DNA of 64,000 nt from a virus (IMGVR_UViG_2734482790_000004), one strand, 5' to 3'; positions 48,042 to 49,588 are shown, numbered from the stretch's first letter. Numbers and translations are program-made. Notes: generated by a model not told the origin, from the sequence alone.

Positions 48042-48506
48042 CAGGGTTTTCGTCATGGTTAGCGACTTTGCGGCGGTTTAGAAACTGACCATTAAAGTAA
48101 ATGCAAACGATGATCTGATGATGGTAGCGGCCTAAGAAGCCAGACGCCACGGGGTATGAGTCGTCCCCCGTCAAAAAATCGACCGCAGAGTGTCCCCGTC
48201 TGTGTATTAGGGAACGGGGAGGCACAACAGGTAAGGGCGCTGGTGTGATTAACCAGATGAACGAGAAGGGGCCATCTGTTGGTCAGCGTCCTTTCCTGTT
48301 GCGTCTTCTTTTCAGCGTAACAGCGGTGCTTAACAGCACTTTGGGTACAGTTCCACGAATTTACGGGTATATCCCGTCATGCTGAAAGCGCTAATCACGC
48401 TGGAAGCCAGGGTTATGCATCCCCTGTTACCGAATTGCAGCCAGGGCGCGGTGCGCCGAAAAGCATACGGAGGTGGAAGCCCTCGCCGGAGACGTACCCG
48501 GCAAGT

Positions 48507-48582
48507 GATGGTGTAGCTCAGCGGTTAGAGCGGTTGACTGTTAATCAACGGGTCGATGGTTCAAATCCATCCACCATCGCCA
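48507..48582 (+). tRNA. tRNA-Asn (anticodon GTT)
   Basis: Hand-folded cloverleaf: acceptor GATGGTG/CACCATC, D-arm GCTC/GAGC, anticodon loop CTGTTAA, T-loop TTCAAAT, 3' CCA. Confidence 0.85.
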
Positions 48583-48584
48583 AT

Positions 48585-48660
48585 GCCGGTTTAGCTCAGT
48601 TGGTAGAGCGCCTGCCTTGTAAGCAGGATGTCAGCGGTTCGAGTCCGTTAATCGGCACCA
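48585..48660 (+). tRNA. tRNA-Thr (anticodon TGT)
   Basis: Acceptor GCCGGTT/AATCGGC, anticodon stem CCTGC/GCAGG, loop CTTGTAA, T-loop TTCGAGT, 3' CCA. Confidence 0.85.
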
Positions 48661-49588
48661 GCACAACAGGTAAGGGTATTTTGCGACGTCGGAGATCGCC
48701 GAGCTTGGCAGAGGGTTCGAATCCCTACGAAGTACCCTTACCGTTGTGATGAATGCGCAGGCTGATGCGCGAAAGACATTGCAGCTATTGCGGAAAAGAG
48801 CTGTTCGGCGGGGCAATTAAACGCCCGTGAGAGTCTGAAATAACCGCAAGCCGGAGATCAGCACCGGTCATCACAACACAACAGGTAAGGGCATTCTCCC
48901 TTATGGGGCTTGGCTTAAATGCATCGAGTGCTCTTACCGTTGTGATGAAGTGCAGCTCTTTGAAGCAACCAGAAGATAAGCATCTGGCTTCACAACATAA
49001 ACCGCAGGAACGACCAATAAACGGTAGTCCGTATGGAGAACACCCCGTTGAGGAAGAGGCCTGGCCGGAACCGTAACCGGCACTACAACGTTGAGAACAC
49101 TGGCGTAACGGGGTCATATCCCAATCTACGAATAAATGTTGCGTTGCAGCGTGACAACCAGTGTTCTCAACATTGTGGTGAATGCACAGGCTGATGTGCC
49201 GCAACTACAGTAGTGCGCGCTTTGCGGGGCTTGCTACAACCCTGTGTCGGAGTTCAGCACCGACCATCACAGTTTGATTCTCTGGCATGAGCATAACGCT
49301 GAAATAAGTCCAGCCTGGTGCGGCCCGATCACCCGCCGTTAGCTCCACGAAACGGAGCACGTAACAGGTAAGAGCATTCTCCTGTAACGGGTTCATATCC
49401 CAATCTACAGGTCCACCAAGAATGCTCTTTCCGTTGCGGTGAATGCGGCTAAGCGCACGCGGGGAAATGGTTATATCAGTCCATTCATTTCTCCTTGTTT
49501 CCCCGTCCACGGTGGATAACCAGCCAAAGGACACCGGGAGGCACCCGGCACCGCAGCTTTTTTATTCGTTAAATAATGGAGTGAGAGG

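Follow-up and report, generated by a model that had tools for sequence, protein, structure and literature searches.

Hairpins that serve as substrates for ribonucleases (RNases) are well described in phages and bacteria. RNase III processes stems at the early sites R0.3-R1.3 of phage T7, in the N leader and at sib of lambda, and on either side of the 16S and 23S rRNAs, from which spacer tRNAs are freed. RNase P cleaves the hairpins of the C4 and CI antisense RNAs of P1/P7 and P4, and the M3 RNA of phi80 is a classic hairpin substrate of the same enzyme. The current study concerns a palindromic element that is present in five copies between positions 48220 and 49438 of a viral DNA stretch of 64,000 nucleotides (nt), IMGVR_UViG_2734482790_000004, which is referred to in its entirety as the window. 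The window closely resembles the P1-like phages, with 98% identity over the region to RCS47, vB_EcoM-813R1, and P1, and its gene arrangement is of the RCS47 type. The copies are hairpins conserved as RNA, and they belong to one conserved element, absent from Rfam, that links P1, lambda, Shiga toxin (Stx)-type, P22-type, and Klebsiella phages. The 1.7 kb ahead of the ban gene looks like an array of non-coding RNA.

The family is defined by a covariance model (R1) based upon an alignment of the arms of 49 distinct members, in which each interior was replaced by a GAAA linker and the arms form a 19-pair helix. Members carry a 5' arm (G)CA-CAAC-(A)-GGUAAG... paired to a 3' arm ...CUU(U/A)CC-GUUG-UG within a basal helix of at least 16 base pairs (bp). 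Within the 64-kb window, this model has exactly five matches (48219-48315, 48658-48760, 48873-48956, 49080-49189, and 49356-49450; E values of 2e-7 to 2e-14), all of which score best on the + strand, exceeding the minus strand by 10-34 bits, and all of which have 34-59 bits and basal helices of 19-22 bp. The original prediction, made from the sequence alone, had described five palindromic units in this place, and each is indeed a + strand hairpin, as judged by folding (z scores of -3.6 to -6.3 against shuffled controls), by the covariance model, and by a repeat finder, which reports inverted repeats I1, I2, I6, and I7 as well as direct repeats D1-D5, with D1, D3, and D4 corresponding to the conserved ends. 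A permissive Rfam 15 scan of the five hairpins yielded only chance-level matches to microRNA precursors, none of which attained a gathering threshold.

Hairpin 1 (48220-48306, I2) has a 20-bp helix, a folding z score of -5.9, and 34.3 bits on the + strand versus 24.7 on the minus strand. It is the most divergent of the five, lacking the bulge as well as the GUGAUGAAU and GTGATGAATGC tails. Hairpin 2 (48662-48750, I7; 21 bp; 58.7 versus 29.3 bits) begins 3 nt past the encoded CCA end of a tRNA-Thr gene, and hairpin 3 occupies 48877-48946 (19 bp; 54.1 versus 30.5 bits). Hairpin 4 (49081-49180, I1 with 23-nt arms; z -6.3; 22 bp) scores 44.9 bits on the + strand with no minus-strand match; its stem has covaried over its whole length (CAACGTTGAGAACACTGG / CCAGTGTTCTCAACATTG) and is without the bulged A. 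Hairpin 5 (49360-49438, I6; z -5.95; 19 bp) scores 54.3 versus 20.6 bits. The conserved ends originally quoted for all copies are accurate for copies 2, 3, and 5, but not for copy 4, which has a covarying variant, or for copy 1, with its missing tail. Two further details of the earlier description can be located precisely: the internal motif said to occur in two copies is GTAACGGGKTCATATCCCAATCTAC, found at 49105-49129 and 49384-49408 (D5), and the T-loop-like sequence said to occur in one copy is GGTTCGAATCC, found at 48714-48724 within hairpin 2.

The central claim of the original prediction, that the stem sequences differ between copies while remaining complementary as a consequence of selection on RNA structure, is borne out by the family as a whole. 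When the aligned arms are compared, 92.8% of alignment cells are paired, versus 39-60% once the 3' partner is slid. Changes on both sides are seen in 10 of the 19 pairs, and none of 500 shuffles reaches the observed value in any of five measures. A single example is provided by the D6 orthologue of hairpin 1, in which a C-G pair has undergone a compensatory change to U-A. The base of the element is nearly invariant and consists of CA-CAAC, a bulged A, and GGUAAGAGCAUUG paired to CAGUGCUCUU(U/A)CC-GUUG-UG. The bulged A following CAAC is conserved, a U.U mismatch is present in 40 of 49 members, and a U.G wobble in 35 of 49; all three are retained even though a plain duplex would not need them. 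Among the aligned arms, there are 71 G.U cells and 10 A.C cells, and because G.U so far exceeds A.C, the folding strand is the tRNA-sense strand. The same strand is indicated by 98 other loci, in which the forward model match outscores the reverse by roughly 25-40 bits. Across the family, the basal helix measures 16-30 bp (median 18) plus the mismatch and bulge, or about two helical turns, and the length of a substrate of Escherichia coli RNase III (about two turns, roughly 20 bp or more) lies within reach of these helices. The GCUCUU(U/A) stretch in the 3' arm was also considered as a boxA-like sequence and was rejected as such, since it is base-paired and covaries away in variants.

The distribution of the family was examined in viral contigs using a two-anchor pattern (CAACAGGTAAG, 40-70 nt, CCGTTGYG), and the counts of elements, interiors, and contexts given here are those among the matches listed by this pattern. 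An exact scan for the 14-mer GTTGTGATGAATGC had returned almost only chance matches, and the two-anchor pattern was used in its place. At least 81 distinct elements were found in at least 120 viral contigs, which are mostly 30-50 kb in length. The family is distributed over the temperate phages of Enterobacterales and is also present in many prophages of this order. When applied to bacterial genome contigs, the pattern yielded mostly chance matches together with lambda contamination, and the results were filtered by arm complementarity; true members in the one-genome-per-species data come from Serratia, Klebsiella, Pectobacterium, Pantoea, Rahnella, Kluyvera, Citrobacter, and their relatives. 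Phage lambda itself carries a family hairpin at about 44783-44874 (exact match at J02459 44779-44900), located directly past the 6S/tR' terminator and ahead of gene S in the late-gene leader. Exact copies of the lambda hairpin were also encountered on contigs, several shorter than 5 kb, attributed to Pseudomonas, Psychrobacter, Algoriphagus, Oceanobacillus, Segatella, and other unrelated taxa (loci L256, L258, L280, L284, L291, L309, L312, L320, L322, and others), and these are probably the result of lambda DNA contaminating the assemblies.

Within phage operons, family members occupy long leaders or the gaps between genes, including the interval from the Q antiterminator gene or tR' to the holin gene, the region downstream of repressor genes, and positions beside tail or terminase genes. 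Many begin 8-12 nt past the T-run of an intrinsic terminator, and the nearest long open reading frames (ORFs) are co-oriented with the hairpins at ratios of 45:12 downstream and 50:15 upstream. In mEp460, the member lies in a PL-type leader just downstream of the repressor gene. A second conserved non-coding block (GGTTGTAACACGGCG...GACGTTAAAGGGG) is present in that same mEp460 leader (locus L007, about 2255-2330), again just downstream of the repressor gene, and in the ban-operon region of D6 (locus L004, about 3760-3815); it is possibly an element that acts in cis within the leader, for example an antitermination site. A weak member (23.5 bits; ACAATGGCTAGCATA...TATGCTAACCATTGTGGTGAAGTGCAGG) was identified with the covariance model in the Qin prophage of E. 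coli K-12 between cspB and essQ, on the minus strand at NC_000913 1641154-1641227 (L245 11155-11228). This member overlaps an unannotated 11-codon ORF preceded by a good Shine-Dalgarno sequence (AAGGAGG...ATG). No known Rfam family covers the members in 21 related loci, text searches for the arm sequences in the papers that could be searched returned unrelated matches only and no description of the element, and a P1 transcriptome preprint does not mention the region. The phi80 M3 RNA was considered as a possible identity for the family and was set aside, since according to the phi80 record M3 is homologous to lambda oop RNA, and phi80 gave no convincing match to the family.

The spacers that separate the hairpins follow a plan of their own. 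Most family hairpins are followed by GUG(A/G)UGAAU and then by a small hairpin, commonly GCGCA-GGCUGA-UGCGC; a loose search for such modules downstream of the hairpins was positive in 74 of 97 distinct contexts, versus 19-40 at control offsets. In the window, the spacers end with a hairpin of the CCGG-loop-CCGG type followed directly by (U/C)CAUCAC, and both spacer ends pair with one another through closing helices that covary (GUGAUGA/UCAUCAC, GUGGUG/CAUCAC, and GCGGUG/CACCGC). Module A (48746-48874, + strand), between hairpins 2 and 3, comprises GUGAUGAAU, a small hairpin, a CCGG-loop-CCGG hairpin, and UCAUCAC, with ends pairing over 7 bp. Module B (48942-48998, + strand) is a short version composed of UGAAG ... 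CCAGA-loop-UCUGG and CUUCA, which includes direct repeat D2. Module C (49174-49272, + strand) contains GUGGUGAAU, GCACA-loop-UGUGC, GUCGG-loop-CCGAC, and CAUCAC, has paired ends, and includes D1 and D2. The module past hairpin 5 (49433-49566, + strand) begins inside the 3' arm of that hairpin, is closed by the GCGGUG/CACCGC helix, terminates in a T-run, folds with a z score of -3.7, and matches the Rfam model of STnc100 (RF02076) over model positions 31-147 with 37.8 bits, below the gathering score of 47. In phage 933W, whose STnc100 is bona fide, the core is the same (AUGGUGAAU ... CCGGG-loop-CCCGG-CACCAU). We considered whether STnc100 starts at a family hairpin, which is not so in 933W, and because the STnc100 of that phage has no family hairpin upstream, its published ends are silent on hairpin cleavage. 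A small ORF starting from the GTGATGAATGCGCAGGCTGATGCG tail (MNAQADA...) was likewise rejected in favor of the small hairpin GCGCA-loop-UGCGC, as it lacks a Shine-Dalgarno sequence and its ends are inconsistent from one context to another.

Two other observations concern these modules. The block of about 140 nt containing module A (48737-48879) is approximately 98% identical in P1-like phages, lambdoid phages (mEp460 and Stx phages), and the Klebsiella siphovirus IME207, and is far more conserved than its surroundings. In IME207, a module A-like spacer is flanked by family hairpins and followed by tRNAs. In addition, 34 bases at the end of the STnc100-like module (49524-49557) are 100% identical to sequence annotated as CRISPR in two E. 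coli chromosomes, NZ_CP028764 and NZ_LR025101; based upon this identity, E. coli CRISPR arrays seem to hold a spacer that targets this non-coding portion of the P1-like phages.

The P1 annotation places the C1-controlled operator Op72 and the ban promoters after the methyltransferase gene dmt. Next come a "dicF-like region," the tRNA genes trnA (Asn) and trnT (Thr), and the plp and upl ORFs of the minus strand, with trnI and ban lying farther downstream. From this order, the hairpin stretch can be assigned to the ban operon leader; this operon is repressed by C1, and its transcription proceeds on the + strand. By homology to P1 (NC_005856 68667-68694), the C1 operator Op72ab, which overlaps the ban-operon promoters, is at 47822-47849 on the + strand, where the repeat finder also places inverted repeats I3 and I18, and + strand transcription from these promoters enters the hairpin region. 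The dicF-like region (47944-48041, + strand; a P1 misc_feature) ends in a strong intrinsic terminator at 48012-48041 found by a terminator scan, and the Rfam DicF model has no match anywhere in the window, this region included. The order of promoter, short terminated RNA, and hairpins is the same in the window and in lambda; as read from its sequence, the dicF-like region would yield a short RNA that terminates close to the promoter, in the manner of lambda PR'-6S-tR'. Such a short RNA would be comparable to lambda 6S or StxS.

We assign a probability of roughly 0.5 to the following interpretation, in which the hairpins are RNA-level punctuation cut by RNase III in combination with RNase P at the GUG junction. 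Upon derepression, the operon would yield a + strand transcript containing the terminated dicF-like RNA, two tRNAs, several STnc100-like modules, and the hairpins. Host RNase III would then bind and cut the long two-turn stems, while RNase P would cut at the GUG of the hairpin 3' foot, where the next tRNA or similar module begins. Cuts of this kind would divide the leader into individual RNAs that are no longer coupled to the mRNA downstream. Several features favor a role for RNase III: the helix of about two turns, the seemingly dispensable top, an orientation that follows transcription, and a position between tRNAs and modules within one transcript. Processing stems of this anatomy are found in T7 early RNA, the lambda PL operon, and rRNA operons, and cleavage of the P1 and other family hairpins by RNase III is suggested by analogy with them. 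Presumably, the RNase III sites of lambda are located just beyond tR', within the family hairpin, and the mapping of the lambda copy probably dates from 1988. The centroid fold obtained for the 600-nt late leader of lambda contains the family hairpin. To judge from its title, a 1988 paper by Daniels et al. reports RNase III sites in lambda late RNA (Virology 167:568, cited in PMC7547250). With regard to RNase P, wherever a true tRNA follows a hairpin (loci L134, L183, and L192), its first three bases are the GUG of the hairpin foot, and this GUG is also where the modules between hairpins start. The site at which RNase P would act on the following unit would therefore coincide with the hairpin 3' foot.

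The original prediction had raised the possibility of processing signals for the tRNA operon. Processing signals are what we favor, but the link to tRNA operons is too narrow, as 62 of 80 distinct members have no tRNA gene in the fetched locus and the lambda copy is situated in a late-gene leader. The 16 members found within 300 nt of a tRNA are all on its strand, and 10 of these are within 10 nt or overlap it.

Several points weigh against this interpretation. Firstly, the intrinsic terminator at 48012-48041 sits between the promoter and the hairpin array; transcription of the array consequently needs read-through or a further promoter, and none of the latter was found. Secondly, modules A-C fold no better than shuffled sequences (z -0.2 to -0.7). 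Thirdly, a generic double-stranded RNA nuclease would not account for the near-invariance of the 11 basal pairs, for the bulged A, or for the mismatched U.U, all of which point toward a more specific binding partner. Lastly, the complete turnover of interiors between otherwise identical arms exceeds what is expected of neutral loop drift. Taken together, the over-conserved base and interior turnover would be compatible with a specific binding partner, or with hairpin tops that have a function of their own.

The first alternative takes the hairpins as the end product in their own right: small RNAs, stable and released from the leader, in which the base would be a scaffold or host-factor site and the hypervariable top the working part, for example a decoy, sponge, or antisense loop exchanged between phages as a cassette. 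We regard this as fairly unlikely, although the "family of small structured RNAs" listed among the original options may yet prove right. Above the near-invariant base, the interiors are 29-52 nt long and hypervariable, falling into at least 49 unrelated classes between identical arms. Even the single locus past lambda-type tR' carries different interiors in different phages. The bulged A and U.U mismatch resemble a specific protein-binding site, and the interiors are confined to family hairpins, a finding that also led us to reject their origin as captured foreign sequence. On the other hand, the interiors are barely more structured than shuffled sequences (mean z -0.56), and antisense targets of the five interiors occur only at chance level within the 64-kb window. 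Furthermore, a D6 member with a loop of only about 15 nt still scores 41 bits, from which the interior seems dispensable. Given this member, the weak interior structure, and the scarcity of T-loops, it is the stem that constitutes the conserved, presumably functional part. We know of no experimental RNA species corresponding to the family hairpins.

A bolder and somewhat less probable version would make the base a scaffold for swappable segments of 30-50 nt, with the tops released by RNase III as decoys or guides similar to microRNA precursors and the GUGRUGAAU...CAUCAC modules, akin to STnc100 and PasD, matured by RNase P as tRNA-derived small RNAs. If this were true, the segments would act against hosts or rival phages and be swapped by recombination at the arms, and both the P1 ban leader and the lambda late leader would be arrays of non-coding RNA genes.

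A DNA-level role, in which the palindromes are recombination joints or a small mobile palindrome such as a miniature inverted-repeat transposable element, a repetitive extragenic palindrome, or an attC-like site, with conserved arms that drive the exchange of modules among phages and RNA structure merely incidental, ranks slightly lower again and strikes us as improbable. It draws upon the gain and loss of whole units among P1, P7, D6, and SJ46, with breakpoints in the repeated arms or the inner motif. For instance, a deletion in SJ46 begins at the inner motif in hairpin 4 and ends at the one in hairpin 5, everything past hairpin 4 is replaced in P7 and D6, and the latter two differ from the window by whole units, having further hairpin variants and a tRNA-Ser(UGA) in the same leader. 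Identical arms are also found in otherwise unrelated phages, and the CAAC...GTTG ends recall attC core sites. However, ordinary homologous recombination at repeats is to be expected whatever the hairpin function, the excess of G.U over A.C cells is that of an RNA, and the conserved U.G would become a mismatched A.C if the other strand were the one to fold. The orientation of the hairpins also follows transcription and the tRNAs, their ends miss the attC consensus (GCACAAC versus RYYYAAC and GTTGTGA versus GTTRRRY), and P1 and lambda have no dedicated recombinase in common. No integron integrase is annotated in the P1 and lambda regions viewed, although no search aimed at the integrase was made.

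The possibility that the units derive from tRNA genes by decay, or that they are tRNA-like genes whose acceptor stem is extended, is largely refuted; degenerate tRNA-like genes had been among the suggestions of the original prediction. The interior of hairpin 2 does contain a canonical T-arm sequence (AGGG-UUCGAAU-CCCU) plus a D-arm-like GCGA...UCGC hairpin, a T-loop-like GRGTTCGANTCYC hairpin is present in 14 of 91 distinct interiors, and the units occupy tRNA-like slots, abutting the 3' end of tRNA-Thr and tRNA 5' ends. Despite this, ARAGORN calls only the Asn, Thr, and CAU-anticodon tRNAs in the window and none in any hairpin, the Rfam tRNA model RF00005 matches none of the hairpins even at E<=10, T-loops are absent from most interiors, most members have no tRNA in their locus, and the conserved part is a long stem that is present in no tRNA.

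The region had originally been described as having no convincing ORF. This is accurate in so far as the coding evidence fails, but two minus-strand ORFs are annotated here in P1 and RCS47, namely plp (48785-49204) and upl (49205-49396), both of which are probably spurious. The Plp translation is cysteine-rich, with repeated peptides that mirror the repeated arms. That Plp and Upl are real proteins and the palindromes incidental is the least probable reading of all: beyond the two annotations, it can claim a weak third-position excess of plp substitutions (10 of 17) and the existence of PHROG families for Upl, whereas Plp has no signal peptide despite its "lipoprotein" label and no Pfam or PHROG match, Upl has no Pfam match and matches only PHROGs of unknown function that match only that short ORF, P1 plp overlaps trnT by 30 nt, relatives have frameshifting indels of 1 nt and 13 nt inside plp/upl as well as cassette deletions, and the Prokaryotic Genome Annotation Pipeline (PGAP) calls no coding sequence between the methylase and SPFH genes on a RefSeq plasmid that is 100% identical to the window over the 146 nt matched.

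Several other features of the locus can be assigned. The tRNA-Asn(GUU) and tRNA-Thr(UGU) genes are at 48507-48582 and 48585-48660 on the + strand (ARAGORN; Rfam tRNA scores of 74.5 and 72.9 bits, respectively), and an Asn(GTT) and Thr(TGT) tRNA pair is also known from a P22-like Salmonella prophage (PMC2629481). A further tRNA at 50661-50736 is called Met(CAU) by ARAGORN, and its counterpart is annotated as an ileX-like tRNA-Ile2 in the P1 record and by PGAP; the tRNA set of P1-like phages is thus Asn, Thr, and Ile. Extra tRNAs in the same leader are Ser(UGA) in P7 and D6, as mentioned above, and Tyr(GUA) in Ro157c2YLVW. Downstream of the array, a 78-amino acid ORF (49589-49825, + strand) belongs to the PHROG membrane-protein "moron" family phrog_1130 (E 6e-16), has no PGAP call on the RefSeq P1-like plasmid examined, and is probably the ORF that the original prediction named upl.

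When viewed against previously described systems, the family has several partial relatives. The P1 annotators marked a "dicF-like region" in the ban leader, which invites comparison with DicF and the leader of the Qin dicB operon; however, the Rfam DicF model misses the window and the hairpin model misses the dicF locus. Like the C4 and CI RNAs, the family hairpins are derived from phage leaders and have a long basal stem with internal hairpins, but they differ in having no Rfam C4 match, 3' CCA, conserved loops, or cis targets. Integron attC sites resemble the family in being imperfect palindromes (60-130 nt) whose ends are conserved and whose center varies, with extrahelical bases and unit gain and loss, yet the family departs from their core consensus and has a strand bias that follows transcription. 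STnc100 and PasD, which a recent preprint describes as sharing structure and probably origin, share with the spacer modules the core plan (A/G)UGGUGAAU, small hairpin, CCGG-loop-CCGG, and CACCAU with paired ends; this likeness concerns the spacers rather than the hairpins. A further parallel is with RNase III stems, which are likewise irregular helices of about two turns, located between functional RNAs of one transcript, oriented with transcription, and adjoining tRNAs, and the lambda hairpin itself belongs to a leader for which RNase III cleavage has been reported, to judge from the 1988 title (PMC7547250). The difference is that the family base is far more conserved than a generic site needs, and that it is surmounted by a hypervariable top of 30-50 nt. 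For the classic phage annotation, the correction is that the P1 plp and upl ORFs are probably not genes. Should the variable tops be functional, they would represent a new class of phage small RNA located beside Shiga toxin, lysis, and tRNA cassettes. Processing hairpins in phage polycistronic RNA are a long-known kind of element.

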